Below are positions 663 through 44,569 of a DNA stretch of 64,000 nt, in pieces. Positions within the stretch are counted from its first letter, which is position 1; each line of letters starts with the position of its first letter. This stretch comes from Takakia lepidozioides (lineage: Eukaryota; Plantae; Bryophyta), in contig CM060731.1 in assembly GCA_030704615.1 (NCBI GenBank), positions 73,966,001 through 74,030,000 of the forward strand. Reading direction: 5' to 3'. Made by a program: the position numbers and the translations under genes. A model generated the notes under the pieces. The model searched no databases. It was not told the origin of the DNA and saw only the letters and a list, made by a program, of their open reading frames with translations.

Positions 663-737
663 GAGTGATGAGGTTATATATGCATGAGTTTATGCTTCAG
701 ATTTGTGAGCTCGTGCTTGTATTCTTCTTCTTTATCA
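663..737 (+). repeat. 3' tail (75 bp) of the gypsy LTR (5' LTR remnant)
   Basis: GAGTGATGAGG...CTTTATCA is identical to 16512-16586. Confidence 0.9.
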
Positions 738-1966: not shown

Positions 1967-2560
1967 ACTGTCATGAGTGGCCTGTGGGGCTGTGATGGGC
2001 CGTGACAGGCTGTGCCCTGTGGCCTATGGGGCTGTGACGGGCTGTGACGGGCTGTGATGGGCTGTGACAGGCTGTGGCGGGCTGTGCCCAGTGGCCTATG
2101 GGGCTGTGACGGGCTGTGACGGGCTGTTGTGAGCTGTGACAGGCTGTGCCCTCTGGCCTGTGGGGCTGTGACGGGTTGTGAGGGGCTGTGAGGGGCTGTG
2201 GCCTTTGGGGCTGTGACCCCTGTGACCTGTGTAGGGCTGTGACAGGTTGTGCCATGTGGCCTGTGGGGCTGTGACGGGCTGTGAGGGGCTGTGACAGGCT
2301 GTGCCCTGTGGCCTGTGGGGCTGTGACGGGCTGTGACAGGCTGTGCCTGTGGCCTTTGGGGTTGTGATGGGCTGTGACAGGCTGTGACCTGTGGCCTTTG
2401 GGGCTGTGACGGGCTGTGGCAGGCTGCGGCCTGTGGGGCTGTGACCCTGGGACCTGTGTAGGGCTGTGACAGGCTGAGGCCTGTGTTGGGCTGTGACAGC
2501 TGTGACCAGTGAGCTGTGTGGGCCTGTGCTGGTCTGTGGTGGCCCGTGTTGACCTGTGGA
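1967..2560 (+). repeat. Minisatellite of GGGCTGTGAC-type 10-mers with higher-order units, in the retroelement 5' leader
   Basis: Dozens of GGGCTGTGA(C/T/G) units punctuated by GTGGCCT(G/A/T)TGG. The minus-strand HSPSQP-repeat ORFs derive from it. Confidence 0.95.
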
Positions 2561-3229
2561 CGGCCTGTGCTGACTCGTGGATGCACTGGTGGACTGCCTA
2601 AGGACTGGCATGTGGTCTTGAAGGCCGAATTTTGAAGTTCGTGGAGGGCGGTTTGAGAAGTATCTTCATGATATTCCCATGGTCATGCAAGTGAGGGAAG
2701 AGAGGAGAGAAAGAGTGTTGGGATGAGGGCATGCTGGGGTTAGGCATTGCTTTAGCTTCTCTTCCTCGTAGTTTCCACCCTCTCATTAGGCCAAGACCTT
2801 TCCGTAGGTGGAGGCAAGAGTCAATCCGGGTTTGGGCTGGGGTGTCCTTGCAGGAGCAACACCGTGGAGTTGTTTTTGGTGTGGGGGAGTTGTCGTTCTG
2901 ATTTCTTGTGTTTGGATCCCCTCCATACCTGCATGCTTGACTGTGCGTCATGCTAGTTTTGTGTGGGCGCTTGTTTTTATAGGTGATTGGTCCGGATTTG
3001 ATCACCGGCCAGTCCTAGAGCATGCTGTCGATGGTGAGGCTGGGGTGATGACCAGCCAGACCATCATTGTTTCTCCTGTGGTGAGGTTGGAGGTGATGAC
3101 CAGCCAACCATAGGAGTGCTTGCGGTGGATGCAGGTACAGGTGTAGGCTATGTTAGGAACTTAGTATTCCAAACCATAAGCCGCAACAGGTTCTCTACCT
3201 GGTTACCTTGTGGAGAGGGGGTTAGAGAT

Positions 3230-4981
3230 ATGTTCATGACCGGTTGAGTGTCAACACGGAGGTGCCACTAGTTGCTGGAGACAGTGCCGGTTCGAGCACT
3301 AGCGATACTAGTGGGTACACGAGACGAGGTGTGTGGTTTAGGCCACCTTCACCTCCTGTGTCTTCTACGGAAGGTTCTGATTCGGATTGTGAATCAGGAG
3401 GACTCATACCAGCGGTGTAAGTTGTTTCCTTGCCATTGTTGTGGGACACGATGGAGGAGATGTATGGAGCTACCAACGAGCCACAAAGGTACTCTGGGGC
3501 GGTGGGCACCATTGAGTTGGATGATTTTATCCAAGAGTTTGATAGTTGGTGTGATTTGCAGCAAATGCGCAATCCACAACTATTTACGCCTTTCATGGCA
3601 TGGAAGGGGCTATTTCAGCACCTTGAGGGGCCGCCTATGGATGATTACCATGAATTCAGGCGGGGGCATGAGGTTGAGATCGAGGAGTGGAGGATGTACT
3701 GGTCACCCGATCTCCATCACTAGGGGCACTAGAGTCACGAGGGCAGTGGCTACATCTGCTGCTGCACCGGCAGCTTTAGCAAGCAGCAGTGGGACTAGTA
3801 GGACTAGTGGTACCATAGCTACGACGTCCACCCAAGCCACTACTGTACCAACACCAGTACCCGTGCCTGCCTTCAACCCTGTTGTGGAGTTCTTCGAAGA
3901 GTTGAGAGGGAACTACCAAGGGGTGAGGACAGAGAAGTTGCGAAGCTTACAAGAGTTCCAACAGAAGCCTACTAAGAGCTTGAGGGAGGCTTTCACTCGC
4001 ATGAGGCGCTTGATAAATGTAACCCAAAGGGTTACGGAAGCTCAGGCACTCCAATTCTGGTATGGGATATTGGACAAGGAGCTGAGGAGAAGGGTGCGGG
4101 ATGCAACTCTCCTACAAGCGGCCCAACCCACCTTAGCAAATGTGTTTTTGCTGGCAGAGCAGATAGAGCTCAACATGGTGGAGGAACGAGTGGTCATGGT
4201 GGGATTTGCTAAGGAGACACCACGGGGTAGTGGTGCTCCTAGCCAACCACTACCTGAACATGCTCAAGGCAATAAGGGGGCTCAGGTGAAGCTCAGGGAA
4301 GGGCAGAGAGGACCTCAGATGTAGGGGTCTCTCCCTTCATTTGCAGGCCAACAACGGGCGGATGTGGTGTGTTGGACATGTGGAGGACCCCATGTCAAGA
4401 AGGATTGTCCAGAGGGAGGCAAAGGGCCGGCACATGCACAGCCTGCACAGTTGCAGTGTGGACATTGTGGCAAGCACAGGCATGGAGAGGCCCAGTGTTA
4501 TGGTTTGCATCCCGGGCTGCGCCGAGGCCAGTTCCAAGGGAACAATGGTGGCCGGGGGCGAGGGGAGCAGCCCAAAGAGGACAAGGTGGCCAGGCACGGG
4601 GTGTAGGCCAAGGGCAAGCTCAACATAGCCAAGGACACGGAGGTCAGGGTGTTGACCAAGGCATAGCCAACCGGCTTCAGCAGCTAGAGCAAAGGCTCGT
4701 TGCCATGGCTATAGCTCAGGTGGTACGGGCTCCAAGGCCGGATGGTCCACCTCCTGCTCCTGAGGGAGAAGATATGGGAGGCATGGGATTCATGTGCGGA
4801 GCAGCACTACCACTAGTGCAGGTGGAGTCTGCTGCAGCCGTGACTTAAGGAGCAGCACGAGTTCCTGAGCCACGAGGTGCAGAGGTGGAGTTGGATCCAT
4901 AGCGTGGGGAGGCAAGCCATCAGGCTAGGCTCCCTCAGTCATTCACATTGGCGGAGACAGTGTCGACGCCATCCATGGCAC
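3230..4981 (+). pseudogene. gag: gag of the DNMT-bearing gypsy element (frameshifts and stops)
   Basis: Capsid-like segments (LDDFIQEFDSWC..., LQEFQQKPTKSLREAFTRMRRL) and Zn knuckles CWTCGGPHVKKDC and CGHCGKHRHGEAQC (~4370-4500). The frame continues across the DNA-transposon insertion (...AETVSTPSMA|PSSRPT). Start is approximate. Confidence 0.85.
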
Positions 4982-5284
4982 CCCGGGGGGTGCACTCTTT
5001 ATAAACTGTGCGTATCACGTGCGTTCGTCGCCTAATAAAAAAAACCCCTGTATACGGGTCCTTGGATAATTTATACCCCCTCTGTACATACTTTTTGAAG
5101 ATTATAAAATCCCCTCCTGTAAATATACAAAAATTTACAATTTTCGAAAAGTACCCCCTTCTGTATGTATATTCTCATTTTTCATCATTAAAAATAACCC
5201 TCCAATATGTATATGTATGTTTTTATATTATATCGAATTTATTCATTTAAAACATAATAAAATCTAACAAATTAATTTAAAAAA

Positions 5285-6097
5285 TTATTTGCCTTTGATA
5301 AAGTTGTCAAAGACTTTTCGGTCATTTGCATCAAGAACATATGTGTTTGACTTGACATTGTACTTTAAATATGCTAATGCGATAATGGAATCCAAATCAA
5401 CCATCATGTTATCCGTCAAATCGTACGTATAGACCCCTCCTCGAATTTTTTGGTACCATGCTAACCCAATCTCCATATGAGAAGGACGCTCCAATAAATC
5501 AACAGAATCCCTACATTCTACAAACCGCTTATTGATTTTCTTTCGCATTCTTTGAACCCTGCCCAAATACCAAGTGCCTTTGGTTGCTCCTCTGCATGTT
5601 TTCCCTGGTCTACCTTTCCTATTTGTAGTTTGGATCGCAGTCTCCGCATCAACAAAAAATACAGCACAATCCGAACCCAATCCCAAGCCAGCAAAGGGTG
5701 TATCAGGGTCCATCCTCATCTTGGTAGACACTGGTGCCGGGTCCTCGCCTGGTCTGTCCTCATGCAAGATCGTAGAACCACTGGAAGATAGAGGTCTTTT
5801 CAATCCTTGGTCCCCATCATTTTGGTCTGAAATCTTAATGTGTACAGTATCCCCTTTCAGAACCATCCTCTCTTATTGCTTGGCTGAAAAGACACTACCC
5901 CCCATGGAAAGGAAATGAAATTTTGCTGAGACAAGCTCATCACCTATAATTTCTGCTCGGATGCATTTGTATGTGACACCTTGCATAGTGAACACAGAAC
6001 CAAGCCTGTTTGGTGATGCATCTCCTCCAACAAGCAGGACTTTTACTTCCAACTCTTCTTCCATGATGAATTCACCTGCAAAATGCAATGAAAACAT
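5285..6097 (-). pseudogene. Unknown protein inside the DNA transposon, probably the last exon of a spliced gene, with one in-frame stop
   Basis: Two in-frame ORFs (5873-6097 and 5285-5866) separated by one stop. Acceptor-like TTTGCAG|GTGAA near 6080 on the minus strand. The stop lies just inside the subterminal region. No catalytic motif recognised. Confidence 0.5.
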
Positions 6098-6220
6098 TTC
6101 AAATCAGACCTTGATAGACCAATAACAAAGCACCCGGGTTGGAAGGTTCCAAAGTCTTGTTTTATACAACCCTATAGGCTATCCAAGTAGGAACTACGTT
6201 CATAAGAGGATGAAATGTAT

Positions 6221-6944
6221 TGTCGCACACCTCAGTTCGGTAAACTCCCCTTCAAGTCATAGTTACTCGCTTGGATGCGCGCGCCTGACTCCCAACCTGG
6301 CCGTCGGGCCAACTTGGAGTTTCGGCTGCTCACCGGGACATAACGGTCCCCTTCCGCTTCCCTCTAAACCCTCCACCTATTTGGGACTAGGAGAATTCCC
6401 TTTGGTAGATGGCAGTCCGGAACAGCTCCCCACTCTTTGGTCGCTTTCCGGCTCGCTCGCTTACTCACTAGTTTTTGGTCACCAACGGGCTTGCACCGTT
6501 CTCGGGGTTACTACTCCCTATATATACTTCTGTAGCTGTCCGCGGGGGTTTCATAACCAGCCATGCCATTTTATGGCGAACCACCACGAAAACCCTCGAC
6601 TCCCGGTGGTGAGTCGCGGTGAGTCTTGGCCCACTCACCGCGGCCCCAATGGACCGTGATGAGTCCCAAGACTCCCCACGACTCCCACCTCGAGGTCTCC
6701 ACCCCATGGTGAGTCCTATGCCACCCCCACTAAGTCCCACTAAGCTACCACCACCCCTTGTGGAGCCACCTCCACCGCAACCCGGTGTGCGGGGCTCCAC
6801 CTAGTGAGCGCCTCCGCCTCCTTGAGTGCCTTGGGCACTCAAGGGTGCTTCAGCCCCCCATACCTATCGCTGCCGCTGCCCCCACCACAGGGGCAGCCCC
6901 TCATGTGTCCCGACCCCCTGCCCTCAAGGCAAAGGGCCGCGACA
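6221..6944 (-). mobile_element. Solo LTR of the chromovirus family at 17970-23813
   Basis: Reverse complement of that LTR, with TGTCGC...GCGACA ends and a perfect TSD TGTAT (6216-6220 / 6945-6949). Confidence 0.95.
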
Positions 6945-7868
6945 TGTATACAGAAGCAAGTACCTGATTGATGAGTTTGATGTTGTTAATTTTTGCTGCT
7001 GCTATTGACCAAATGCTGCTACTTCCACTGCTGGTAGCCCTCTTGGGTGATCCTGAACCCACAGTCCATCCTTGCATCAGCGGCTAGCCCTCCCTCCACA
7101 CTAACATATTTAAATACAAAGTTCTGTCAAACTCCCTACGATGTTGCATGAAGAAAGCTCACCTTATTGACAATATTGTCCCACCGCTGTGGATCAAATT
7201 TATAGAACTCCTGCCAGCGCTGTTCCTTGCTCCAAATCTGGCCCTCTTGGATGATTTTGCACCCACGATCCTCTCCCTGCATCAACAGCTACCCCTCCCT
7301 CCACACTAACAATGCGTACATCATGCATCTGCAGCTACTACTGTGGCTTCCAGTTGACCATCTACCCATCCAGGTTTCTTGTAGCTATCATTCCACATGG
7401 AATCATAGGTAATCTGGAGCTTGGAATCCGCCATCTGGAAATCTAGGGACGACTCTGATAATAGGGAAAAACAGGCTGAAATGTGTTGAAGAAGATACCT
7501 TCATTAGCAGTCCCTTGTTCTATCTATTATCTTTTTTTAGGTACTGTCATGCTACCACCTCGGCAGCAACTTGCAAAGTCACTCCAGAGCACAGCAGATC
7601 CACCCAACGAGCTAACTTACAGAATTCAATACATATGCTTCAGGGCTGAGTCTGATGAGAGGGAAAAACGGGCTGAAACAGGTCAAACCAGAAAGTGCCC
7701 TCAGGCTGAAATACGTTGAAGAAGGTACCTTTCATCAGCAGTGCCTTGCTTTATCAATTGCACTGTTGCCGCTGCTGTTTCCAGTTGACCATCCACCCAC
7801 ATTGTCCCACCATTGACTGGGGTCAGAAAAGTGTCTCATTCCAAAGCTTCTCTTCATCTCTGTGGTGC

Positions 7869-8500
7869 TATTGTAGGGTGACTTCAATGCCCAAGTGGGC
7901 AAAGGGCTCCATCAGGACGATATCATTGGGTCTTCTGGTGAGGACGAGCTGAATTCTAATGGCAGACGGTTAATTAACTGTCTGGAAGAGCTTCAGCTTT
8001 TGACCTTGATTAACAAGACAAGAGGTGACCAAGTGCAGTGGACTCGTGAGAAATCCCAAACTGGGAACGTTCCATTGTGGACTATATCATAATGGACAAA
8101 AATTTGTTCCCCCAGTGTGCCAATGTGTTGATCGACAGAACTGATATTGGTACCTCTGACCACTTTCTGGACTGAGATCAAAAGGTGTTTTCCAAGGCCA
8201 GAGTAGAAGAGATTCTCAAGGACCTGGACCTGGATCCGCAAGTCTTGACCTTGCTGGATAAATCAGACTTAGAGGCTGTAGTGTCCAAAGCCATGTCTAT
8301 TGCCATGAGATTGTCTGATGAAAATGAAGTTAGGCATAAAACTTCCCTGAACTTGTTTCTAGTCAGTGACATGGGGGAGGACATCTTGGATGACCTCAAG
8401 GGTCCACCCACTCTCGGCACTAGACTGAAATTTAAACTCAGGGAAGGAAGCCTACCTTTGAACATGAAACAGAAGCAGAGAGGAAAGGGGGAGTGCACTC
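7869..8500 (+). mobile_element. Internally deleted LINE fragment (same family as 44570-49411)
   Basis: Matches the endonuclease region (~46290-46620) fused directly to the 3' ORF region (RVEEILKDLDLDPQV...). Confidence 0.9.
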
Positions 8501-9018
8501 TCCCAAGTGAACCTGCATCATTCAGTTGGCAAGACCGTGTCTGAAAAATTGATCCATTTGAAGACACCACGGTGCAGCTGAGCACAGCCTGACATGACAA
8601 CAATTAAACATCATACTGAGACAAGAGAAGCAGTCAAGGACACAGTCATGCATATGGCAGCAAGTGATCACCCTTCAAACATGATTGAAAACATACATGA
8701 GGTCAAAGGCAATAAGAAATCAGCAAAGGGTACTGCAGCTAACAGTTGGAGTGTCTTTAAAGACAAAGGGAAGAGAAAGAAACACTTCACTGGCAATGAG
8801 GGGAGGCTGTGGAAACGCCAAGAGGATGGCACAAATGATAGAAATAACAGGGCTGGGCAAAGGATCCTGCAGGAAGAAGAAAGGGTATGTCAGCATGGAA
8901 AGGACGTGCAGCTCATTCCAACAGAAAGGGGAACATTCGTGCAGTTAAGTACAACAACCAATTGCCCTTCAATTATGGCTGGAATTTTCCAAAAGGCGAG
9001 GGATGATAAGGATGAGAT

Positions 9019-10880
9019 TGTACTCATAAGACGTTGTTTGCCGTAGCCTTGTGGCCATTGACCCCGCGCCCAGTTTCAGTGGGAACAAAAGGAACAGGGC
9101 TGACGTTGGTAGTAAGACTTACCATCGTATAAGGAATTAATCCGGGTTTTCCAGATATCCTCTAGAAAACCCTTCACACAAGCATCAATCTGCTGTGTGT
9201 GATTTGCCCAAAAACTAGGCCTCAGGAGGGCCTGGGCTTTTGGCTCAGCCTCGAGACTTTCAAAGTTGGTAAACAGGGGTACAAGCACAATTCCCTTGAT
9301 AGAATTGAAGAGAGCCTCTCTTTGGTGAGAGAACCCGGACAACGTATCAGAAAATGAATACTGTCTTCAGATTGCCCACACAACGGACAATTGCACTCTC
9401 CCTTTCCTCTCTGCTTCTGTTTGCTGTTCAAATTGCTGACATTAGCCTCTAGCCCCCAAAGATCAAAGTATCTCTTCGCGCAATTAATCAACTCCTGAGT
9501 GTGATGCCACGGTAGTTCCCCGGTTCTTCTCTATCACCCTTCTTGTATAGACTGACAATGACCCCCTGTCGCCAGCGAAAGGGGATCATTTCAGTCTTCC
9601 AGATAAGGTTAAAGAGGAGAACTAGGGCCTCTATCATGGGATCGCCACCGTGCTTGATAAGCTCGTTGACAATACCATCAGGTCCACCAGCTTTATATCC
9701 ATTTAAATGTTCAATTGCTTCCACAATCTCAGAAGAACTAATGGGAGCGTTATAAGCCATTGAAATATACTCCAGTTCATCAGGGCTGTTTTGAATCATA
9801 GGAACAATTTTTCCAACTGTGTCCCTCCATTCAGCAGAAGACCCCTCACTGTTAGACCTAGAAGTTCTGCCAAGGATACTGTAGTGATTTTCAAAGGTTT
9901 TGACAATGTCAACCGATGAAGTCACCACTGCACCTTTAGTAGTCTTCAGCGCTTGTACTTGCTGACCATTTTTAGGCTTGTACAAACGTTGAAGGGCCAA
10001 CCATAATTTCTTGTCATTACCACCATGGTGGTTTGAGTTTATTTCACTGTATAACTTATCCCAGTATAATTTCTTCTGAGTTTAACAAGCTGATTGATAT
10101 CTTTCCGGAGCTGATAGTACCTCGCCCACAATTCTCTGTTGGTTTTCATCACCAAAAGGCCCAATGATATCATCCCGATGGAGCCCTTTGCCCACCCGGG
10201 CATTGAAGTCACCCAATAGCACTACCTGACCTTTGGCAAGGAACGAAGCACAGTCCAGCTTTACATCTTCGAAGGCTTTGTCTGCGTCAGCGGCAAGAGT
10301 ACGAAGGACCTCTTTGTGGGTTGTGTTTACATGCCCACAGAGGGGACCCTTAGTGCTGATCCAGTTTTAGCCAGATACTATGTTCGTACCTCAAACCCTT
10401 GCTGATAATTTCACAATTATCAAACAAGAAATCACGGACAAAGAATCCAACCCCTTTTTGACCGCGTTTGGCTGAGGCTGCCTTGAGAGTACACATCCTA
10501 CCTGCCCATTTATAACCATTGACATCTCCAACCAGTTTATCCGAAGTTTCCCATGTTTCTTGCCCAGCACAGATATGAATATCATTAGTCCAAAGGACTT
10601 GTCCCACTTCGAGTTGTTTCCTTTGGTTAGTAAGCCCTGAGAAGTTGAAAGTGGCCAGCCGCAAGCCAGCCCTTTGCATGTGAATTGTTTGTCGTCTAGG
10701 TAGCTTGGGATCGCTCCTGGACGCCCAACCGTTCTGCAAAGGGGGGACAGTTACCCCATGTGTAGATTTTGCTCGTCTTGTGTAAACTCTTGAGTACCAA
10801 ATCCTTCAGATTCAGGACGTTCAGGTTCTGTACACTTAGGGGCATCTTGTCCCTCTGGCTGTTTGGATTCAATAAGGATG
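9019..10880 (-). mobile_element. Multiply deleted LINE copy (same family) with a small internal inversion
   Basis: Starts with the reverse complement of the LINE 3' end (TGTACTCATAAGACG...). Pieces of Zn finger, RT, EN and 5' repeat are joined. About 10304-10358 is in the opposite orientation. Confidence 0.9.
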
Positions 10881-11549
10881 AGAATAGGCCTGATACAGTG
10901 AGTACAACCATTGTGTCACGCCAATCATTATTAGGAAAGAAAATAGGCCTAATGTGCTCATTACCTCTGATGACTGGGAATCTTGATGCCCATGTCCTCT
11001 TGTCATTGCTGCACAACAATCCGCCACCACACCCGCATATCATCACCGATCAGCCCAGGCCTGCCCCACATTCCCGCGCACTTACTTCATCCCCTTCGAT
11101 TCCTGCCCTCTACATACATCACAACCTCAAACCTTCTCCCAAGTCAGTGCCCTCACCACATTGTCCTACCATGCCCTGTGGAGAGGAGGGGAGAGGAGAG
11201 GAGGAAAAAGAGAAAGCCCGCGGAAGGGAAGGCGAACGCGGGAGAGGAGGAGAAAGAAAAGAGAAAGCCGCGGGAGGTCAGGGGAGAAAGATCGTAGAAC
11301 GAAGGAAAAAAAAAAAAAACAAACATACAAAACGACGATTCCACGATTCGATACCGGGATGCATCGCGGCGGAATCGCCATTCTTACCACTACACTATCC
11401 CTAAAAACTCAACAACCCCCTCCTGTAAAATTATATTTAAGGTGTTTTAAACCCCCCTCTGTATGTATAATGTTGTACATGGGGGGGTTTAAAATACCTC
11501 CTGTGCACGCACGTGGTTGGTACATTTAATGAGGAGTGCACCCCCCGGG

Positions 11550-12351
11550 CATGGCACCTAGTTCTCGCCCGACTGTTACCGAGGCGGAGGTTACTACGCC
11601 ATTGGGGAGAGCTACACGGGTAGCACCACTACCTAGTGTTGCCAAGGCTACGGCAGCTAGTGTACTGCTGGGAGCGGCCACATCTGTGTGTCAGGCTCCA
11701 TTGTTCTCGGCTACCATGATTGCGACATCGGGGATAAGACCAGCTGAGGTGTTCAGGCTGGTAGCTACACTCTGTGAGAGTGAGGAGGTTACTTCATCTT
11801 CTGCGGAGATAGTGGGAGGTGTAGTGCCGGAGGGATCCTCGGATTTGAGGGTCAAGACTGCCACGACGGCGCCATGGCAAGCTGCAGCTGCCAGGTTGAT
11901 GGAGCTGCCAGCTAGGCCAGCCATTGAGCGCACCATGGTGACACCTGGAGTTGTCATGTTAGACAACCAGGATGACATTTTCTGTTTGAGTGGACCAGCA
12001 GGCAAGAGGTACCGGCCACTGCGGGTCTTGTTGGACTTAGGAGCTCAGCCATTGATGCTGGGCACAGATGCTATTGCAGGCTTGGGCCTCACGGAGGCGG
12101 ATATGGAGCCTTGTCCTTTCCAGATACAGACGTCTCTGGGAGGATCGGAGCAGGCTCGGGGCATGACACGGTGTGAGTTGGCTATCAGACTGCGGCCGGA
12201 TCACCCTACAGATGGCTCAGTGATGCGAGCCAAGGCCATTGTGACAAACGCGGTCTCGTACGATGTCCTGGTTGGTGGGGCAATGTTGTACCCCATGGGC
12301 TTCACCCTGGATTTTTTGGAGGAGTCAGCTTCCTATAGGCCTGGATGGTAG
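11550..12351 (+). pseudogene. Gag-pol linker and retroviral-type aspartic protease
   Basis: RVLLDLGAQPLM (degenerate D-S/T-G active site, ~12020-12060) and the C-terminal YDVLVGGAML motif. Confidence 0.8.
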
Positions 12352-12739
12352 TCAGGGGAGGGCCGGCATGTGCAGCTCCTTGTGACGTTTATAGGAGGGG
12401 TTGCGGTTGCCCAGCGGGGCAAGATGCCGACACTAGCAGCATTCACAGCTGCAGTGACTTGGCCTGGAAAGTTGCTTGAGGGAAACGCTCATTCAGAGGA
12501 TGACATGCCTCCAGGAGAACAGGATGACATGTATGATATGGCGGAGTTGTCTGCCATGGTTGCTCAGACTCCATTGTGTGGCACGAGCAAGGATTTGCAG
12601 TAGGTTGCTGATCGACGGGTGCAACAAGCCTGGGTGGAGGCTTTTGTACCATCAGGAGAGGAGGAGAGTGCGGGGATTGCACCAGGACCACCTCAGTTGT
12701 CTCCATTGGACACCACATCTATTGTGTGGCAGTATCCGG

Positions 12740-13710
12740 ATGAAGGCATTTGTCTTCTGGACTTGTTTGGCGGGATCAGCACCAGATTGGCTGATATATT
12801 ACAGGCAGGTGTACGAGTTCAGCGTTACCTGTATGTGGAGAGGGATGAGACTGCACGACGTATTTCACTTTGTCATGTTGCTCAGTTGGTGCAGCGGTAC
12901 CCTGAGTTGTTGCCGGTGGCTACAGTTTGTGGATATCAGCAGGCCTTGCCAGCAGACATTTCGTTGCTGGGGGCGCAAGATTTGGAGCGGGTTGGCTCCA
13001 TTGATCTGGTAGTGGCAAGTTGGCCCTGCCAAGGGCATTCATCAGCCGGGCATGGCAATGGATTGTGAGACTCGAGGTCGGGTCTGTTTTGGGAGATGGT
13101 GTGGGTTTTGCGCCACTTGCAGCTTCATCAAGCTGTATCTCCAGCATACATCTTAGAGAATGTGCCACTCACAAGTTTCTCGGGCCAGGATGATGGCCAG
13201 TGTGCATCAAGTCCGGTCGTGGCTTGGGTCAGCAGTGTTGTTAGATGCAGCTACAGTGGGGTCACGGGCTCATCGTCCACGGCTATGGTGGACTAACTTG
13301 ATGCCACCCGCACTGCTCAAGCGTGCATTTGATGGGGTGCAGCGGCCAACACATCTCACAGTGGATAGCATTCTGGACACATGGAGGCAATCTCGGCGTG
13401 TGAGACACGATGACCGTTTGCCTTTGGCAGTGGTCAACAAGGTGGATCAACCACGAGCAGCATTACCTACACTGCTCAGCTTCCCAGGATCGCATGCTTT
13501 CCGGGATTGTGGACCTGGCCTCCTGTGGGATGCTCAGTTGCAGCAGTTAGTGGAGCCTAATGCTGACGAGCGTGAGCGGGCAATGGGTTTTACCACTGGT
13601 ACCACGGCGGTGCCGTCTCTTTCTAAGGCAACACATCGTCAGGTGTTGGGGCAAGCAATGGATCTCAATTGCTTGACCTGCATTATCAGCTTGGCTATGG
13701 CTAAGCAACG
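12740..13710 (+). pseudogene. C5-cytosine DNA methyltransferase domain (DNMT3-like) within pol
   Basis: Motifs in canonical order: I LLDLFGGIST, II YLYVERD, III PADI, IV DLVVASWPCQGHS (PCQ 13024-13032), VI YILENV (13156-13164), VIII DAATVGSRAHRPRLWWTNL, IX ERERAMGF, X RQVLGQAMD. One stop (13066-13068) and one frameshift (~13170). Confidence 0.92.
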
Positions 13711-14049
13711 CAGAGTGCGGAGTGCACTTCCCTCGCTGGTCTCTCTGCCTACCGAGACGGTACAAGCAGTGAGTGGGGGCGAGCATGTGAGGACCACGGG
13801 GTGTAGGCATCCATGGCACACGTGGGAGGTGCTCGAGGTTTAGAGGGAGTTGGCAGCCAAGGTGGCGGTGATGGATGAGGCTGGGGATTTTTCTCAGGTT
13901 GAGGAAGTCCTCGAGAATGAGATGATGGGGCAAGATGAGGCCTTGTCATTGACTGAGCAGGTAGGGAGTACTGCTCAAGAGGTTGCAACATAGCAACCAC
14001 TGGATGCGTCCTCTACCTCTAAGCCCACTGGACTTAAGGTTGTAGTTAC

Positions 14050-14300
14050 GGAGGACAATTGGGAGCCTGACATTGGACCCATTGTCACCGGAGGAGAGAG
14101 ACGACATATACGGCGGTTCCTGAGGGCTTACAAGAATTGTTTTGCCTTCAATTTGAAGGACTTGGGAGCACTGAAATGTCAAGAGATTCATATTGAGTTG
14201 GCCACTGACACGCCAATCTTTTGGAAACCCTATAGATACAGTGACATAAAGAGGTCTTTGATTCAGATGAGGACTCAAGATCTCTGGGAGGTCAGGTTGG
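14050..14300 (+). pseudogene. N-terminal remnant of gypsy reverse transcriptase; RT core and RNase H deleted
   Basis: FAFNLKDLGALKCQEIHIELATDTPIFWKPYRYS... is typical pre-RT sequence. It then jumps to the pre-integrase linker; no YxDD or RNase H motifs. Confidence 0.75.
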
Positions 14301-14313
14301 ACCTACAATAGGG

Positions 14314-15819
14314 ATGACTGTAGACGGAGTGTCTGAGGACCCTGAGGCTAGTGATGAGCCAGGTGGTACCAGAGATATACATGAGGATTCGGCTGTGTTG
14401 GACTACCTCCGTACTGGAGATATGGCAGCCACTGTGACTGCCAAGGAGAGGGATCGGATCCTGCAACGAGCCAAGAGGTTCAAGTGGGAGGGGATACACC
14501 TGCTCCGAGTATGGGAGGATGGTCGGGTGAGGATTGTGCCTCACCCCACACAGCGTGCACGGTTAGTGCGGCATACCCATGAGGAGTTGGGGCATTTTGG
14601 AGTGCGATGCACTCACAGTTTACTGCAGGGGCAGTATTAGTGGCGTGGTATGCATACAGAGGTGCAACAGTTCGTGGCTAGGTGCATGGTGTGTGACAGG
14701 GTGTGTGCTTCATTCAACGCCCCTACACCACAGTTGCATCTTTTACCAATCATGGGATTGGGCTACAGGTGGAGTCTTGACTTCGCAGGACCGTTGCCAC
14801 TGACTATGCGCCACCACAGATATGTGTTGGTGATGGTGGAGTACTTCTCCAAGTGGATTGAGTTGGTTCCATTGCCTGACAAGGCTAGTGAGGGGGCCGC
14901 GTATGCATTCTTGGATCGTGTGCTTAGCCGATTTGGTACTCCAGCTGAGGTACTCACGGACCAAGGGAGAGAGTTCTTGGGGGAGTTTCAGGCTTTGTGT
15001 GATAAAGCCTTGATAGACCACCGCACCACTTCTCGGGATCATCCTGAGGCCGATGGCTTGGCAGAGAGAGTTGTTCAGACGGTGAAGAGGGGTTTGCACA
15101 AGTATGGCTTGCAGAAGGGACACCTAGGAGATTGGGATCTTTAGGTTTCTTGGTTAGCCATGGGCTACAGGTTCAGCAAACAAGCATCACTTGCCTCCTT
15201 CTCACCATATTTCCTTCTCTTTGGCCGAGAGCCGGATTTGCCTGCAGCCATTCGTAGGGACACTGCTCAAGTCCTTAACCTTGACGATCCGGACGTGTGG
15301 GTACGTGCATGTGATCAGCGTGCAGAGTTGTTCAAGAAAGTCATGCCCATGGCTTTTGAGAACCTTGCCATTGCACAGCACCGTGATACGTTGAGGTATG
15401 CCACTATACGTGGTGGAGGATATCGTCCTGGGGTTCGGAGGTTTAGCCCTGGTGACTATGTTTATTTGCAGCAGACTGCTCTTACGACTCTGGATGTTAC
15501 TGCAGGGCGTGTTATTCTGAGGGTTCGAGAGGTGTTGCCCTCAGGGGTCGTGATCTTGGAGGGTCGGGATGGCATGACTTGGAAGGACCATGTGCGTAAT
15601 TGTGCGCCATGTCACCTTCCCAATGTCGATGGCAGAGTTGACCCAAACTTGGCAGTGATACCTGCAGATTTGAGGTGCATGCTCTGTGGGTCTGCCAAAG
15701 GGGCAGCCACCATGATGGTGTGTGATCGATGCTCAAGGTGTTGGCATATGGGATGCTTGACACCACCTCTTGATAAGGTTCTTGACGGAGATTGGTTGTG
15801 TCCACACTGCTTGGGATAG
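14314..15819 (+). pseudogene. Integrase with a C-terminal PHD finger
   Basis: HHCC (HEELGH...CMVC) and DDE core (WSLDFAGPL, VLTDQGREF, DGLAERVV), with in-frame stops ending at 14640 and 15144. C4HC3 PHD: CMLC...MMVCDRCSRCWHMGCLTPPL...GDWLCPHC (~15676-15810). Confidence 0.93.
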
Positions 15820-16079
15820 TGGCAGTGGACATGACTGGAGGCAGCTAACAAGACATGGGAGGCCAAGCTCATAGGAGTCAATACATGAAATCCCAAGCTC
15901 AAGTTCACATGTTGCAAGACGGCGACTAACGATGGGGCAACTCTTGCACCCGGCCTCTTGATCTATCGAGTTTGAGTGTAGTAGGGATAGTGGTGGAGGA
16001 CTTAGTGAGGCTATGGTCACTATCATATCTTGTGGCTACCTGGACTTAGAGGGACCTAAGCACCAGCTAGGGGGGCGAT

Positions 16080-16586
16080 TGTGTGGACTAGTGACTGCCA
16101 TAGTGCGCAGCATAGTGGCAGCCTAGTGACTGACTAGTTGTAGCCTAGTGGTTGGACTAGTGGTTGGACCAGTGGTGGACTAGTGATATACTAGTGTGTG
16201 GCGTGCACATGTGTTGTGTGGTTTTGGACAGCGATGTAGTTGTGTAGCGATATGTATGCGCACGACAGCTGTCAAGTTATTTTACCACTAGTGTGAAACT
16301 AGCTAGGAAATAGCTAGTTTTTACATATTGACATTTGGGATTGGCCCAAGTGTCAATCTAGGGGTCAAGGCAGATTTAGGCCTTGGAGTGGTTATCTTCA
16401 CGGCAAGCGCGGGAGGCTCATCTTTCTCGAGTTGAGCCTCACCGCACCTAGCTATGGCGCCGTAGTGTGGATTCCCCGTGGCGTGGGGTGCACTTGGGTT
16501 GACTTGTATTTGAGTGATGAGGTTATATATGCATGAGTTTATGCTTCAGATTTGTGAGCTCGTGCTTGTATTCTTCTTCTTTATCA
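16080..16586 (+). repeat. 3' LTR of the DNMT-bearing gypsy element
   Basis: Follows the PPT, begins TG and ends CA. Its tail is duplicated at 663-737 and its head at 16588-16763. Confidence 0.75.
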
Positions 16587-16587
16587 T

Positions 16588-16763
16588 TGTGTGGACTAGT
16601 GACTGCCATAGTGGGCAGCATAGTGGCAGCCTAGTGACTGACTAGTTGTAGCCTAGTGGTTGGACTAGTGATAGACTAGTGATATACTAGTGTGTGGCGT
16701 GCACATGTGTTGTGTGGTTTTGGACAGCGATGTAGTTGTGTAGCGATATGTATGCGCACGACA
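16588..16763 (+). repeat. Second copy of the LTR head, abutting the LTR end
   Basis: Repeats 16080-16267 with a few substitutions and one fewer ~12-bp GACTAG-type unit. Confidence 0.9.
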
Positions 16764-18756
16764 ATGATTATATTGACAATTCACAATATCGTGATTTCCG
16801 AGTAAATGATAAGTAAATATTCGCGTCCTACTTTGGACACAACTTACTATTTAAAATTGATTGTAAAGACCATGGAATTTCAGTCTTCTTCTGATATTCT
16901 TTTGCTTTGCATGAAAATTGTTATATTGCCAAACCATACGTAACGGTCAATGGATCCGTTGTTCCTTTATGTCCGTCGATTTTTTTTTGGAACCACGCGT
17001 GATCGCGCGTTCTTTCAACTCAAATTTATTACTTTGCTGACATATATTTCATTTGCAGGTATGCCCATATCAACATGTTTTCCATGCCACAAATGCATTT
17101 TCAATTGGCAAAACAATATCGTCTGATATTGTTGACGATGTAGAAATGATCAGGCCAGAAGCTTTCCAACGACCTGACAACTTGTTGTCTTCTCAGACAT
17201 CCATTGTTGTTATGGAGAGTGATCCCATCAGTGTTTCGGATATTGTTTCGAGGCTCAAAATGTCAAAAGGTGAATCCACTGTTAGCAGGGTCGATGATTT
17301 AACTGGGGTTGGCTGCATAGTGGAAAACGACTCTCAATATCTTGGGGAATCCTCTTTGGAGCCGTCTTTATCCCAACACTTTCCACCAGACGCCGTTACG
17401 GGGCATCTACATGAGTTTACCAAACAATTGGTTGCAACTATCGCTGAACTACCTCCTCAACATGTCGTAATTCCAAGCGGGTCACCGGATCACGAGGGCG
17501 GGACACCTCAGCTGCTGAGAAGTCAGGTGATTTAATTCTATTTCATCCATGAGTTTTATTGTTACCGTGTTTTTGTTCATCCTCTGATTTTCTCTCTTTA
17601 CTCCAGGCCATAAAATCTGTAACGTATGACCTTCCTGTGAAGCGGCAACTTATGTGGGGTTGTATTCCAAGGTAATCATTTTTTTCCGTTTGAATTCAGT
17701 TCAGGATGTGTAGAAAGAAAGAAACCGAATTCCATTGCCAACCGTCAGCGAGAAGGTTATTGAACTCACTCATTCGTCGACTGAGGTCGCCATACCAACA
17801 AGCCGGCAAATATTTCTGCACATCCCTAACCCCCCATAATTCCGGATGGTCTTGTGTCAAGGAAACGTCACAGATTACAGCAGTCAGCGGCGGTCGTGTT
17901 CAACGATGAAAAACAACATCTGGCGTTTTGTTATCCCTTCAATATTCACCTGCCTCCAGTGGTAACCCGTGTCGCGGCCCTTTGCCTTGAGGGCAGGGGG
18001 GTCGGGACACATGAGGGGCTGCCCCTGTGGTGGGGGCAGCGGCAGCGATAGGTATGGGGGGCTGAAGCACCCTTGAGTGCCCAAAGGCACTCAAGGAGGC
18101 GGAGGCGCTCACTAGGCGGAGCCCCGCACACCGGGTTGCGGTGGGGGTGGCTCCACAAGGGGTGGTGGTAGCTTAGCGGGACTTAGTGGGGGTGGCATAG
18201 GACTCACCATGGGGGGCGGAGACCTCGTGGTGGGAGTCATAGGGAGTCTTGGGACTCATCACGGTCCATAGGGGCCGTGGTGAGTGGGCCAAGACTCACC
18301 GCGACTCATCACCGGGAGTCGAGGGTTTTCGTGGTGGTTCGCCATAAAATGGCATGGCTGGTTGTGAAACCCCCGCGGACAACTACAGAAGTATATATAA
18401 GGGGAGTAGTGACCCCGAGAACGGTGCAAGACCGTTGGTGACCAAAAACTAGTGAGTAAGCGAGCGAGCCGGAAAGCGACCAAAGAGTGGGGAGCTGTTC
18501 CGGACTGCCATCTACAAAAGGGAATTTCACTAGGCCCAAATAGGTGGAGGGTTTAGTGGGAGAGCAAAGGGGGACCGTTATGTCTCGGTGAGCAGCCGAA
18601 GCTCCAAATTGGCCCGGCGGCCAGGTTTGGGAGTCAGGCGCGCGCATCAAAGCGAGTAACTATGACTTGAAGGGGAGCTTACCGAAGTGAGGTGCGCGAC
18701 ACTTGGTATCAGAGCTTAGAGTTTAGTACGTGATCATCCTTGGGATTGGCCTCATC

Positions 18757-20539
18757 ATGGGGTCGGGCAAGCCAAAGCGAAAGCGGAACGGCCCAAAAGA
18801 TGATGATCATGGTGAGCCCGATGGGGGCGACATGTCACCGAAGCGGCCGTTTGAGGAAGCGACGCAGGTTTCTGAAAACGAGGCCGCTCAAGAGCGGGAG
18901 GAATTCGAGGAGTCGGAGCCCGAGGAATCCCTGAGAGCTTCGACAGACCAACAGATGCCTCCCATGCCGGCAGCTTTTTAGGAAGGGTTGTTGGCGCAGT
19001 TTGGCGGGACGTTGAAAGACGTGTTGAAGGCGGCTAATGCCACTTCCGCTAAGGCAAAGTTTAAGGTGAAGCCTAAGGAACCCGACACCTTCGAGGGCGT
19101 CCGAAATCGGAAGGCACTCAACACCTGCCTCTTGGAGCTAGAGCAGTACTTCCGGGCGGCCAAGTTGAGTGACGAGGATCGGGTGGAAGTGGCTCCCACC
19201 TATTTGAGGGGCTATGCTCAACAATGGTGGCAGAAACGCCTTCACGACCGAGGTCCAAGTCCGGAAACCTTGAACTGGAGTGGGTTCAAGGAATTGATGA
19301 AGAGACAGTTTGTGCCCCTCAACGCATCCTGGCTTGCCCGGGACAAGATGAGGGATTTGAAGCAAACAGACGACATTCGGGGATATGTCCAGGCTTTCAA
19401 TGTGCTTTTGCTCGAAGTCGCGGACATGGCAAACCGGAAATGGTCTTCAACTTTGTGGCGGGACTGGCCCCATGGGCCAGGCGGAAGTTGGAGGAGAAGC
19501 CACCTAAGACTTTGAACGAGGCAATTGAGAGGGCTGAATGTTTCTCAGATGTCCCTAGGGGTGAAAGACAAGGCCGTACGGAGCTGAACCACAAGAAGAC
19601 CCGGCGGGAAGGTGACTCCTTCGACCGGAAAAGAAGTGGGATAGGCACGGGCGACAATGGCACATGGAAATCGAAGGGAGGGCCATCACAAGTCAAGGCG
19701 GCACCCGGTGCTTCGAAAGGAAAAGCGGGTGGAGCGGCCTATGGCGGACAGAAGGCACCTTTGATGGAGTGTGTTTCAATTGTGGGGAGCCCGGGCACAT
19801 GGCCAAGAAGTGCACGAAGCCTCGGCAATTGAACATGACTCGGGCGACCACAGAGCTGTCGGAAGATACCATCAGTCGCTTAGTGGAAGCGGTGGTCGCC
19901 AGGACTTGCAAGGTAGGCAAATATTCTTGTGAGTTGTATCAGGAAACTGGCGCATTGCGTAAAGGGAGTCACTTATTGTTCGTGGATGGGATAATATCCG
20001 GAACTAACGTGTCATTGTTGGTGGACACAGGAGCGTCGCACTCCTTCATGACACCGGCAACGGCACAAAAGCTGGGACTCCCGACAACTGACGTAGGGGC
20101 CTCTATTGAGGTGCGTTCTGCCAAAGGAGAACCGCAATTGATGACGAGGTTGGCGATCGATGTTCCTCTTCAACTGGGGAGTTGGGAGGGACGTGAGAAC
20201 TTCACCGTCTGCGAGATCGATGGAGTGGATCTCATTTTGGGGATGATCTTTTTGAGAAAATCCGGAGCGGTCATAGATGGCCGCAAGAGGGTAGTCCCGC
20301 TGCCATGTTGGAATGGTGGCGAGGTCTTACGAGTTTCGGAAACGCCCAAACTCGTGGGAGGGCAAATAAACCTTCTTTCAGCAAGGGAGTGGGCCGTGGA
20401 GGAGGCACACGATCCCCAATTTTTGCTCTACATTAGAGAAGTGAAGGGAAAGGCGATGGAGAGCCGAGCCCAGATTGGATCAAGGGGATTTTGGAGAAAT
20501 ACCATGATGTGATGCCGGAGGATTTGCCAATCGGCTTGC
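18757..20539 (+). pseudogene. gag: Chromovirus gag and protease (stops and frameshifts)
   Basis: PKEPDTFEG...YLRGYAQQWW...LKQTDDIRGYVQAF, Zn knuckle CFNCGEPGHMAKKC, protease LVDTGASHSF...DLILGM. Confidence 0.92.
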
Positions 20540-21039
20540 NNNNNNNNNNNNNNNNNNNNNNNNNNNNNNNNNNNNNNNNNNNNNNNNNNNNNNNNNNNNN
20601 NNNNNNNNNNNNNNNNNNNNNNNNNNNNNNNNNNNNNNNNNNNNNNNNNNNNNNNNNNNNNNNNNNNNNNNNNNNNNNNNNNNNNNNNNNNNNNNNNNNN
20701 NNNNNNNNNNNNNNNNNNNNNNNNNNNNNNNNNNNNNNNNNNNNNNNNNNNNNNNNNNNNNNNNNNNNNNNNNNNNNNNNNNNNNNNNNNNNNNNNNNNN
20801 NNNNNNNNNNNNNNNNNNNNNNNNNNNNNNNNNNNNNNNNNNNNNNNNNNNNNNNNNNNNNNNNNNNNNNNNNNNNNNNNNNNNNNNNNNNNNNNNNNNN
20901 NNNNNNNNNNNNNNNNNNNNNNNNNNNNNNNNNNNNNNNNNNNNNNNNNNNNNNNNNNNNNNNNNNNNNNNNNNNNNNNNNNNNNNNNNNNNNNNNNNNN
21001 NNNNNNNNNNNNNNNNNNNNNNNNNNNNNNNNNNNNNNN
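20540..21039. other. Assembly gap (500 N), probably hiding RT and RNase H
   Basis: N run between the pre-RT linker and the integrase Zn domain. The round length suggests a placeholder. Confidence 0.95.
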
Positions 21040-22178
21040 ATGTCAAGACATGAATCACATGCAAACAAAAATGTGGTGGAGCGAGAGTAACAAAAAGCAA
21101 CGGGGCTGTTACAACTTGCCGATGCAAGAGGGGACTGGGGAAAGCGTTCTAGATTGGATTCTATGATTGCTATGCGCTGTCAAAAGGATTCGATTTCATC
21201 CCCACCAAGGAGACGGCAACGGCGCAGGAGACAGGGCGACTGTACTTCGCCCACGTCTTAAAGCATCATGGAGTCCCGAAGGATATTGTCTCGGACCGCG
21301 ATCCAAAGTTTACGAGTAAATTTTGGAGGGCACTTTGGAAGAAGATAGGGACGAGGCTGAAGATGAGCACCGCCTTCCGACCTATGACCGATAGCCAAAC
21401 AGAAAGAGTGAATTCCGTAGTGAAGCAGATCTTGCGGAATTACGTGTCGGCAGACCAAACAGACTGGGTGGAACACTTAGACGCGGCAGAGTTCTGTTAT
21501 AATAACACAGAACACTCCGCAACGGGAGTTTCCCCTTTCGTATTGGTCTATGGAAAAGCACCTCTGGTGCCGACAAGTTGGGCCGCCCAGGACATTGAGG
21601 AACCGGCAGTAGCTGCGATACTGGAAGAACGCGAGCGTTTGTTGAAGCTCGCAAAGTACAACATTGCCAAAGCTAGGAAACGGTATGAAAGGCAGGCGAA
21701 TCGGAAGCGGAGGGAAGTGAAGTTTGAGGCAGACAAAGAGGTCTGGTTGAACATCAAGAATTTCCGACTACCTCCGAAAGTGAGTCCGAAGTTCGTACCT
21801 CCGTATGTGGGACCCTTTCGCATTCAGAAGGTTATGAATGAGGATGTGTATGAATTGGAGCTGCCGGCAAACAACAAGGTGCACCCAGTATTCCATGTCT
21901 CCCTTTTGAAGCCTTACTTCAAAGATGAAGCACGTCCGAATCGGCATCAAGTGTTGCGTTCGTCACCTATGCTGTTGGATCATCAAAATGAACCTGAGTA
22001 CGAGGTAGAGGCAATACTTAAGTCGAGGAGGTTCAGGAACCGAGAAACGGAGTATCTCATCAAATGGAAGGGCTATCATCATGTGGAGGCATCTTGGGTG
22101 CGTGCCTCAGAAATGAGAAACGCATCCGAGGCGGTTGCAGCTTTCGAAGGGCGACCTCAAAAGCGGAAGAAGCGTTGA
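21040..22178 (+). pseudogene. Chromovirus integrase with GPY/F motif and chromodomain
   Basis: IVSDRDPKF, TDSQTERVN, YVGPFRI...VHPVFHVSLLK, and chromodomain YEVEAILKSR...EYLIKWKGY...SW. Confidence 0.93.
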
Positions 22179-24189
22179 TGAGGACATCAACCTTGGAGCG
22201 TGGGGGAGGAAATGCATGCTTAGCCTGGCTTAGCTAGCTTAGGAATCCGATTGCAAAAACTTGTATTGTACAAAACGTGCTATAAATGAAATGGCTTCCA
22301 AATGTTGTGCGTCCTATTTTGTTTGGAATCGTGATGCATGGTATGGTTGGCTAGTGTGTAGAATGCATGCTAGCTTATAAAAGTGGGAGAGGTAAATTGG
22401 GTTAATCGTGTGTTTGCGTAGTGCCGAAATCGGGTGACCCCCATCCAAGGGGCAAGGAAACTTACGCCTTCTTTGGGAGTTCACGTGCTAGTGCGCACCT
22501 GGCGCGTGCGCGTACTATAACTGCGATACCGAGGGGGTTGCCTTGTAGTGCGGGCTAACGCGGAAGCTACGTGCTTCCGTTCACGTACTATAATCGTGTA
22601 GCCTCGGGACGAAGTCGTAGTGCGGCTTTGGCGTGTTCCCGTACCTCAGGCCAGCATTCCAAGGCGGACCCAATTGTAGTGATTGGGGCGCACGGTTGGT
22701 TCAAGGTTATCTTCCTAGTCAAAGAGGGTTCCAGGGAACCCTTGCTCAAGGTGATGCCAAAAGCGGCATCATGAGCGGTCGCAAGCAATGTTGTTGCAGT
22801 AAGGCGATTCGATGCTCGGGGAGGATCGCTCCTTGGCCTTGAAGTAGGCCAAGAAGAGTGCACTGGGAGGAGCTGGAGAGGCTCCACCCTTGGCCGGGAC
22901 TTGGAGGAAGTCGGCCGAACTAGCTAGTGGAGAGTACAGTCAAGTGTGGGGTTTGGTTCTTTGCCATGGGACGCCATGGTACGGAAACAAACTCCTTGAT
23001 GTGGGACGCCACAACTTGGATGTTCGTTTCTACAAAATGGACAAGTCGATGAGGACATCGACTCCCTGTTGGTAGGGGTGTGTGTCGCGGCCCTTTGCCT
23101 TGAGGGCAGGGGGTCGGGACACATGAGGGGCTGCCCCTGTGGTGGGGGGCAGCAGCAGCGATAGGTATGGGGGGCTGAAGCACCCTTGAGTGCCCAAAGG
23201 CACTCAAGGAGACGGAGGTGCTCACTAGGTGGAGCCCCGCACACCGGGTTGCGGTGGGGGTGGCTCCACAAGGGGTGGTGGTAGCTTAGCGGGACTTAGT
23301 GGGGGTGGCATAGGACTCACCATGGGGGCGGAGACCTCGTGGTGGGAGTCGTAGGGAGTCTTGGGACTCATCACGGTCCATAGGGGCCGTGGTGAGTGGG
23401 CCAAGACTCACCGCGACTCATCACCGGGAGTCGAGGGTTTTCGTGGTGGTTCGCCATAAAATGGCATGGCTGGTTGTGAAACCCCCGCGGACAACTACAG
23501 AAGTATATATAAGGGGAGTAGTGACCCCGAGAACGGTGCAAGCCCGTTGGTGACCAAAAACTAGTGAGTAAGCGAGCGAGCCGGAAAGCGACCAAAGAGT
23601 GGGGAGCTGTTCCGGACTGCCATCTACCAAAGGGAATTCCACTAGGCCCAAATAGGTGGAGGGTTTAGTGGGAGAGCAAAGGGGAACCGTTATGTCCCGG
23701 TGAGCAGCCGAAGCTCCAAGTTGGCCCGGCGGCCAAGTTTGGGAGTCAGGCGCGCGCATCAAAGCGAGTAAGTATGACTTGAAGGGGAGCTTACCGAAAT
23801 GAGGTGCGTGACAACCCGCCTCATAATGGAAGGGTAAATCTAGCAAAGGTAATAAGTATCTCATTCACTTGGTCATTTGTCTTATTGGTTCTGGCTTCCT
23901 AGTAATCATTACATATATCATTTTCATTGTCGACACAACTTTACACAAAGTAACCTCGCGCAATCACGCGTGGTTGCAGGAAACTCATAGACTCCCGATT
24001 GTTCTTTTTTGTCTCAAGGCTCAATTGGGTGTCGTAATGCTGAGTTAGGACCTCATTCGCAAAATATTATATCTGAAAATCAGGGTATAGAAACTAGGTA
24101 AACCACAAAACGCAAGTATGTCGTAGCATTTTTTGAGTTGCAAGATATATTAGAAATACCTAATTTTTGGGTCCGTTCCTCCAGAAATT

Positions 24190-44300: not shown

Positions 44301-44569
44301 CCCCACGGCTACGGCAAATGGGGCCAGTTATTGGGCAAATCACACACAGCAGATTGATGCTTGTGTGAAGGGATTTCTAGAGGATATTTGGAAAACCCGG
44401 CCTCGGTACATTACACCAAGGCAAGTCTTACTACCAACGTCAGCCCCTGACAGAGGTAGGTTCTGTCCCTTTGTGTTCTGCTCAAACTGGGGCGGGGTCA
44501 ATGGCCACAAGGCTACGGCAAACAATGTCTTATGAGTACATTCTCTCTCTCTCTCTCTCTCTCTGTGCT
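41385..44569 (+). mobile_element. Four 5'-truncated LINE copies in head-to-tail tandem
   Basis: Copies at ~41385-42096, 42127-43107, 43119-44273 and a composite at 44283-44540. Each ends ...ATGAGTACA plus a (CT)n-like tract and GTG. Confidence 0.92.

Follow-up and report, generated by a model that had tools for sequence, protein, structure and literature searches.

A PHD finger at the integrase C-terminus of a DNMT3-bearing Gypsy family, found in a dead copy from Takakia lepidozioides

Can a retrotransposon carry both a reader of chromatin and a writer of DNA methylation, and if so, would the two act as one? The question is raised by a stretch of 64,000 nucleotides from the moss Takakia lepidozioides (contig CM060731.1, positions 73,966,001 to 74,030,000; hereafter the window), whose initial annotation proposed that an integrase-borne PHD finger and a DNA methyltransferase (DNMT) form a self-contained read/write module, picking insertion sites by H3K4 state and marking them by methylation. 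The finger sits in a dead copy (663-16763) of a Gypsy family with the order gag-protease (PR)-DNMT3-reverse transcriptase (RT)-RNase H (RH)-integrase (INT)-PHD (Table 1). This copy is broken and the proposed activities are absent from it, so they are discussed here for the family.

The PHD finger and the element around it

The finger lies at the end of the integrase frame 15145-15819 (stop codon 15817-15819), with the ligands C178, C181, C193, C196, H201, C204, C219 and C222 (ligand codons 15676-15810) and the conserved Trp two residues ahead of the seventh ligand. Pfam PHD (PF00628) matches the frame at E 8.1e-10 and 39 bits (cut-off 24) over profile positions 1-47 of 47, and the C4HC3 pattern with Trp occurs once in the real window and in none of 60 codon shuffles. 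A complete finger closing the integrase frame, as first described, is thus borne out by profile, ligand pattern and shuffles, the PF00628 search having been suggested from the outset as a check. Confidence in the predicted structure of the window protein is low as a whole (pLDDT 59) and higher over the PHD (~80), and the beta-strands at model residues 105-155 form the SH3-like C-terminal domain of the integrase. Fold matches of the PHD are the DPF, ATXR5, BAZ2A and BHC80 PHDs at 0.5-1.5 A.

The finger had also been said to stand in place of a chromodomain. The positional analogy holds, because the ORF of a neighbouring chromovirus (21153-22178) encodes rve, then SH3, then Chromo (E 7e-12), parallel to rve-SH3-PHD, and the Pfam domain search met no chromodomain at the integrase C-terminus of the PHD element. 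It is an analogy only: chromoviruses, the neighbour included, likewise place a histone reader after the SH3-like domain (as described in PMC6317226 and PMC6673714), but the reader is of another type, the neighbour's integrase is 24-30% identical, the LTRs are normal and no DNMT is seen.

Table 1. Features of the PHD-bearing element in the window (positions of the window; A and B are the two repeats)
Feature	Position	Strand	Remarks
5' copy of repeat A, truncated to last 75 bp	663-737	+	75/75 identical to 16512-16586
Tandem array of ~10-bp units, 5' untranslated part	1970-2570	+	
gag with zinc knuckles, broken by stops and frameshift	3421-4981	+	Retrotrans_gag E 2e-4, below cut-off; matches region upstream of PR in related loci
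Nested foreign insertion	4982-11549		16-bp terminal inverted repeats, 8-bp target duplication; probably hAT-like
gag end and aspartic protease (D-L-G-A motif ~12034)	11550-12390	+	collinear with PR of related loci
DNMT3-like C5 cytosine methyltransferase (motifs I, IV PC, VI ENV, VIII RxR)	12742-13702	+	HMM built in this analysis
Conserved in-frame TAG then CAR-YYA, likely programmed readthrough	13991-13999	+	between gag-PR-DNMT and RT-RH-INT-PHD
Reverse transcriptase stub	14000-14291	+	tblastn gap; other copies continue at 14291
Integrase: H2C2 zinc domain, rve core, SH3-like C-terminal domain	14329-15660	+	rve E 1.6e-14; stops at 14638, 15142
PHD finger (C4HC3, conserved Trp) and terminal stop	15676-15819	+	Pfam, PDB sequence and fold matches
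Putative polypurine tract just before repeat B	16068-16076	+	G-run at equivalent place in L021, L038, L053, L054, L064
Internal copy of repeat B, ends GACA	16078-16267	+	3 mismatches and one 12-bp gap vs 16586-16763
Palindromic B-A junction GACA-NN-TGTC	16263-16274		
Internal full copy of repeat A, starts TGTC	16270-16586	+	
Terminal copy of repeat B, element ends in CA	16586-16763	+	

Damage to the window copy is extensive. Its gag is split by the 6.6-kb insertion, for which an empty-site joint skipping 6576 bases was seen in contigs of runs X1, X3 and X12 (X12 may be RNA, and its PHD-covering contigs are not counted as expression). The DNMT of this copy is disrupted twice, by a stop at 13066 and by a frameshift at about 13175-13205, and a deletion at 14291 has removed RNase H entirely and RT for the most part. 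The usual Gypsy order PR-RT-RH-INT is found in the family, the loss at 14291 being the window copy's own deletion; the protease counterpart in locus L008 matches Asp_protease_2 at E 2e-4, below the cut-off. RT/RNase H is missing from L002 and L003 too; these two loci retain gag-PR-DNMT and PHD, and their breakpoints differ from that of the window copy.

The window holds further features of separate interest. Within the insertion in gag lie LINE fragments and, on the minus strand at about 6214-6944, the solo LTR of a chromovirus. The neighbouring chromovirus (about 17969-23814) is young, its LTRs being identical at 716 of 731 positions, and has a 500-N gap (20540-21039) where RT/RNase H would be. 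A LINE with endonuclease and RT (45338-50168) has a 141-bp triple repeat at its 5' end, and several repeated 3' pieces lie at 41500-44500. Frames include one of 164 aa without a Pfam match just downstream of the PHD element (17041-17535) and one of 456 aa (60209-61579) with a weak CAAD (CURT1-like) match (E 4e-5, below the cut-off) and a long coiled-coil-like tail.

Range of the family and conservation of the two domains

A search with the integrase tail plus PHD found 129 proteins, of which 120 were listed; the protein and locus sets lean toward PHD presence, because the query contained the PHD. Relatives occur in bryophytes as well as in charophytes and chlorophytes, with Marchantia, Calypogeia, Klebsormidium, Coleochaete and Tetradesmus named among the listed proteins and Closterium added by DNMT-led matches. 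A search of viral contigs found no relatives there. The Klebsormidium nitens integrase P0079 falls in the window's integrase clade with support 88, in a quick tree that does not include the published KnitGypsy sequences.

With HMMs built in this analysis, a PHD follows the integrase in 113 of the 120 listed homologues, found as they were with a PHD-containing query, and 43 of the 120 carry DNMT and PHD in one ORF. The place of the DNMT in these 43 varies: before RT in 4, between RNase H and integrase in 27, with 12 partial. Among 80 loci, a collinear DNMT is found in 29 (26 distinct), 38 are too short, and 13 long ones are without it, those inspected being deletions or inversions. All 28 DNMT-bearing loci with DNA at the relevant place have the PHD (26 by HMM and 2 frameshifted; the contig of the 29th ends there), so the expectation that the two co-occur stands within sets drawn by a PHD-containing query, and in those sets PHD is not absent from most DNMT copies. 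DNMT-led searches yielded 3 and 46 proteins; P0113, P0117 and P0121 alone among them reach past the integrase, and all three have a divergent PHD. The PHD is also kept without a DNMT, in P0078 (PR-RT-RH-INT-PHD) and probably in P0081 and P0063.

Both domains are under purifying selection in the family. Between window and loci, pN/pS is 0.25/0.66 for the PHD, 0.17/0.73 for the integrase core, 0.27/0.73 and 0.26/0.76 for the DNMT halves and 0.34/0.55 for the DNMT-RT linker; dN/dS, for which dS is near saturation and the window-locus pairs are not independent, falls from 0.47 for the linker and 0.20 for the PHD to about 0.12 for the DNMT N-half and 0.07 for the integrase core. These values bear on one alternative, namely that the PHD is a captured host fragment carried as a functionless passenger. 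Although the window copy and 46 of 73 locus PHDs fail the complete pattern, such damage is that of dead copies decaying, while a dN/dS of about 0.2 and retention from chlorophytes to bryophytes speak for function; the passenger idea appears already largely refuted by conservation, and we regard it as very improbable.

What the finger would read and where the methyltransferase would be made

The best PDB sequence matches of the PHD are CHD4, KDM5B PHD1 (E 4e-11), KDM5A PHD1, PHF12, WSTF, BHC80, ATXR5 and UHRF1, with ING, BPTF and TAF3 absent from the best 60 of 83 matches. Residues were tallied in 97 proteins with a complete PHD pattern, of 121. Two residues before the His, at what we take to be the position of the cage Trp in H3K4me3-reading PHDs, an aromatic is found in 0 of 97, Gly in 89 and Cys in the window copy, which sets the family apart from the H3K4me3-reading class (ING/BPTF/TAF3). 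A bulky residue stands ahead of Cys3 in all 97.

The residues through which KDM5A PHD1 holds the H3 terminus (10.1101/715474) are largely retained: the Asp matching D312, which binds H3R2, in 86 of 97, and the Pro and Gly matching P331 and G333, which bind the H3A1 amine, in 83 and 76, with the Trp kept as well. The window copy keeps Asp, Gly and Trp, has lost the Pro and departs from the family at two conserved positions. The KDM5A/B PHD1, BHC80, ATXR5 and BAZ2 PHDs share with the family the C4HC3 fold, the R2-binding Asp, the A1 pocket P-x-G-x-W and the lack of an aromatic cage. Unlike in these, the K4-contacting acids (D292 and E305 in KDM5A; 10.1101/715474) are not conserved in position in the family: Asp stands at C1-4 in 9 of 97 and at C1-3 in 40, and backbone contacts cannot be read from sequence.

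Because it resembles KDM5 PHD1 and lacks the K4me3 cage, the family PHD likely reads the unmodified H3 tail. Binding to the H3 tail is surer than selectivity for K4, since the K4-contacting acids are not conserved in position. Of the original suggestion that the finger reads the K4 state of H3, the class assignment agrees with unmodified-H3 readers, while the acids leave the K4 part less secure. This leaves room for the PHD as a general nucleosome anchor (an H3 A1/R2 reader tolerant of K4 methylation) or a binder of something other than histones, which would raise the efficiency of integration and choose no chromatin state. The conserved A1/R2 pocket beside unconserved K4 acids would suit such a role, as would the UHRF1 PHD, a fold match solved with an H3K4me3 peptide (3sow), and the absence of a common sequence among target duplications (see below). 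Nevertheless, the missing cage aromatic and the bulky residue ahead of Cys3, present in all 97 proteins, fit K4me0 readers, and the closest single-PHD structures are those of KDM5 PHD1, whose affinity falls with K4 methylation (10.1101/715474, PMC4225485); we consider an indifferent anchor rather improbable.

The methyltransferase is a non-permuted DNMT3-like domain with catalytic motifs (motif IV GWPCQ in 34 of 47, GWECQ in 9 of 47), and the best PDB matches of its family profile are DNMT3A/3C/3B (E 7e-17 to 3e-12, versus 2.5e-7 for DRM and 4e-6 for M.HhaI). Its arrangement relative to Pol differs between two subfamilies. In the window the DNMT and RT regions are separated by an in-frame TAG-CAA-CCA at 13991, and TAG/TAA-CAR-YYN is found at the equivalent site in 12 of the 28 region-covering loci (10 distinct), besides the window; the other 16 mostly belong to a second subfamily without the stop or are decayed. 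DNMT and Pol thus share a frame divided by the conserved stop in the window's subfamily, whereas the frame is continuous in the second (DNMT-RT open in L061, L064 and L076). Members of this second subfamily (L044, L054, L058, L076; P0122, P0123) also have Glu for Pro before the catalytic Cys.

Decay as the origin of the stop was rejected, as the site is common to 12 loci and invariant in contigs: no variant at 2% or above was found at the nine bases 13991-13999 among 769 contigs (576, 188, 4 and 1). Locus L008 has just two long frames, with TAG-CAG-TTA dividing them. Among 47 proteins (46 DNMT-led and P0121), 37 are (gag-)PR-DNMT without RT, most ending 59-170 aa past the DNMT. In the family, 16 RT-RH-INT-PHD proteins begin just ahead of RT. 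CAR-YYA is the readthrough signal of tobacco mosaic virus (TMV), with 6-10% readthrough in stable Arabidopsis lines (PMC2754532). Programmed readthrough is likely at 13991, and given the conserved stop, the PR-DNMT proteins, the proteins starting at RT and the TMV-type signal, the DNMT would be made at the Gag level and IN-PHD only on readthrough.

The reading that we favour, at a probability of about 0.6, is that IN-PHD tethers integration to K4-unmethylated nucleosomes while, inside the particle, cDNA of the element is methylated by its own DNMT. What has been observed in favour of this reading is the order of the domains, their conservation and purifying selection across the family, the stop separating DNMT from Pol, and the integrase-type ends described below. 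More specifically, readthrough of TAG-CAR-YYA at about 6-10%, as in tobacco mosaic virus, would put the DNMT in roughly tenfold excess over IN-PHD; the protease would free IN-PHD from RT-RH; the PHD would bind H3 A1 and R2 and disfavour K4me3, biasing insertions away from active promoters; and the DNMT, made separately with Gag-protease, would act in the particle before integration. A PHD-bearing Gypsy of Chlamydomonas is reported to insert between genes 2.6 times above chance, which may be selection and not targeting (10.1101/2022.06.16.496473).

The module first proposed holds in part: PHD and DNMT3 do occur in the same element family-wide, each with pN far below pS, but a self-contained module acting at the insertion site fares less well. 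In that version IN-PHD would locate chromatin lacking K4 methylation, and a DNMT carried along in one complex with it would methylate both the new copy and the flanking DNA, as in animal ADD-DNMT3. The ADD domain of DNMT3 has the K4 preference predicted for the family PHD. PHD and DNMT co-occur almost universally (in the sets from a PHD-containing query), DNMT and RT are read without an intervening stop in the second subfamily, a separately made DNMT could still ride in the pre-integration complex, and the DNMT lies directly before the integrase in 27 listed proteins, Tetradesmus P0061 included, so that a DNMT-IN-PHD product could exist there, which counts against separation. The coupling is weakened because the conserved stop and RT-RH separate DNMT from PHD in the window's subfamily, and because the PHD persists where the DNMT is missing (the DNMT-less relatives above) or moved. 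We consider coupling unlikely, if possible and most plausible in the relatives whose DNMT abuts the integrase.

Self-methylation of cDNA by retrotransposon DNMT3s has been hypothesised, and the KnitGypsy DNMT gave no methylation in yeast, which its authors call inconclusive (PMC5890265). CpG depletion was rejected as a mark of it: the window element (0.19-0.39) is low beside the chromovirus (0.83-0.89), but values just as low come from the LINE (0.42) and from other Gypsy pieces (0.36). Self-methylation has left no specific trace, since CpG observed/expected is no lower in the family (0.38) than it is for the remaining Gypsy pieces in its loci (0.36).

A second methyltransferase was met in distant homologues. 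Of those with a tail of at least 240 aa after the PHD, 36 carry an amino-type methyltransferase (DPxxGxG, SPW/SPPF motifs), among them P0092, P0094, P0051, P0093, P0076, P0097, P0120 and P0056; it mostly follows a Tudor/SH3-like block, and 16 of the 36 carry the DNMT3 within that ORF too. For the P0120 model, structural matches are METTL5 (Z 13.7, rmsd 3.1, 153 aligned) together with M.TaqI (Z 13.2, rmsd 3.0, 160 aligned), and the nearest Atlas clusters are mostly phage proteins.

Element ends, known relatives and implications

The window element has split direct repeats in the order A-coding-B-A-B, a DIRS-like layout also met in the 8 loci with both ends; full repeat A in relatives is about 280-340 bp and starts TGTC. 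The 8 two-ended loci start with TGTC or near it and mostly end GACA (TG...CA ends), and 6 of them, two probably representing one insertion, have an exact 4-bp target duplication; one has a single mismatch and one has none. No duplication is seen at the window copy, whose 5' A is truncated, downstream of the 5' A no tRNA primer site is apparent, and the duplications have no common sequence. From these duplications and the TGTC...GACA ends it follows that a DDE integrase inserts an element of DIRS-like layout. Membership of DIRS/Ngaro (tyrosine recombinase, no integrase-type duplication) is ruled out by the rve integrase and the exact 4-bp duplications. Phygy elements, described with a 4-bp duplication and an NCGN preference (PMC6317226), do not match either: 0 of 7 readable duplications are NCGN, although two could be decayed NCGN. 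The internal junction GACA-NN-TGTC resembles an LTR-LTR circle junction (in the window and in L006, L021, L038, L052, L053, L054, L064 and L069).

In domain order, DNMT type and repeat layout the window element is of the KnitGypsy-Dnmt3 kind, described from Klebsormidium nitens (de Mendoza et al. 2018, PMC5890265), with which it shares an intronless DNMT3-like domain in a Gypsy polyprotein, DIRS-like repeats and purifying selection. The DNMT of KnitGypsy-Dnmt3 lies in the RT-INT ORF, whereas that of the window element lies on the gag-PR side of the conserved stop; the text and the supplements consulted of that paper mention no PHD, and its Fig. 4c could still show one. The guess that PHD-bearing gypsy integrases may already be known proved right: Gypsy-7a_cRei of Chlamydomonas reinhardtii (10.1101/2022.06.16.496473) has a PHD in its Gag-Pol, a proposed role in gene avoidance and an intergenic bias, and PHD fingers in retrotransposons have been described as widespread (PMC6673714; 10.1101/2021.11.30.470311). 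Gypsy-7a_cRei, which has ordinary paired LTRs and no reported DNMT, resembles the present family by description. EpiLTRs of Cymbomonas and Euglena (10.64898/2026.05.21.726589) also combine chromatin reading with DNA methyltransferases within a single LTR element, but the reader is a chromodomain, one methyltransferase is a Dam-type adenine methylase, and the DNMT is sister to DNMT4 and stated to be distinct from the streptophyte Gypsy-DNMT3. The accessible text of PMC6317226 mentions neither PHD nor methyltransferase, and that of PMC12344493 has nothing on PHD. Gypsy elements with a PHD, Gypsy elements with a DNMT and LTR elements with reader plus writer have therefore each been published separately; the PHD-DNMT3 pairing, the bryophyte range, the readthrough and the second methyltransferase behind the PHD were not found in the literature searched, and bioRxiv supplements, Repbase, subscription journals or Fig. 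4c of the 2018 paper may already show the PHD.

A broader and quite tentative picture, which we think unlikely in full, would be an old green-lineage Gypsy clade with permuted LTRs in which a K4me0-reading integrase is coupled to the element's own DNA writers. The algal-type DNMT3-IN-PHD-Tudor-like-amino-methyltransferase would be one chromatin-targeted protein that chooses and methylates its site, and bryophyte members would have re-dosed the DNMT by placing it before the readthrough stop.

Integrase-type ends combined with a DIRS-like layout point to an unusual replication route, and LTR-finding programs would miss such elements. The readthrough site predicts where a transposon-encoded DNMT3 acts, abundant and in the particle, a question open since 2018. 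Finally, with the family abundant in bryophytes and with tractable relatives such as Marchantia, these elements offer a natural test of whether a PHD can do for an integrase what chromodomains do.
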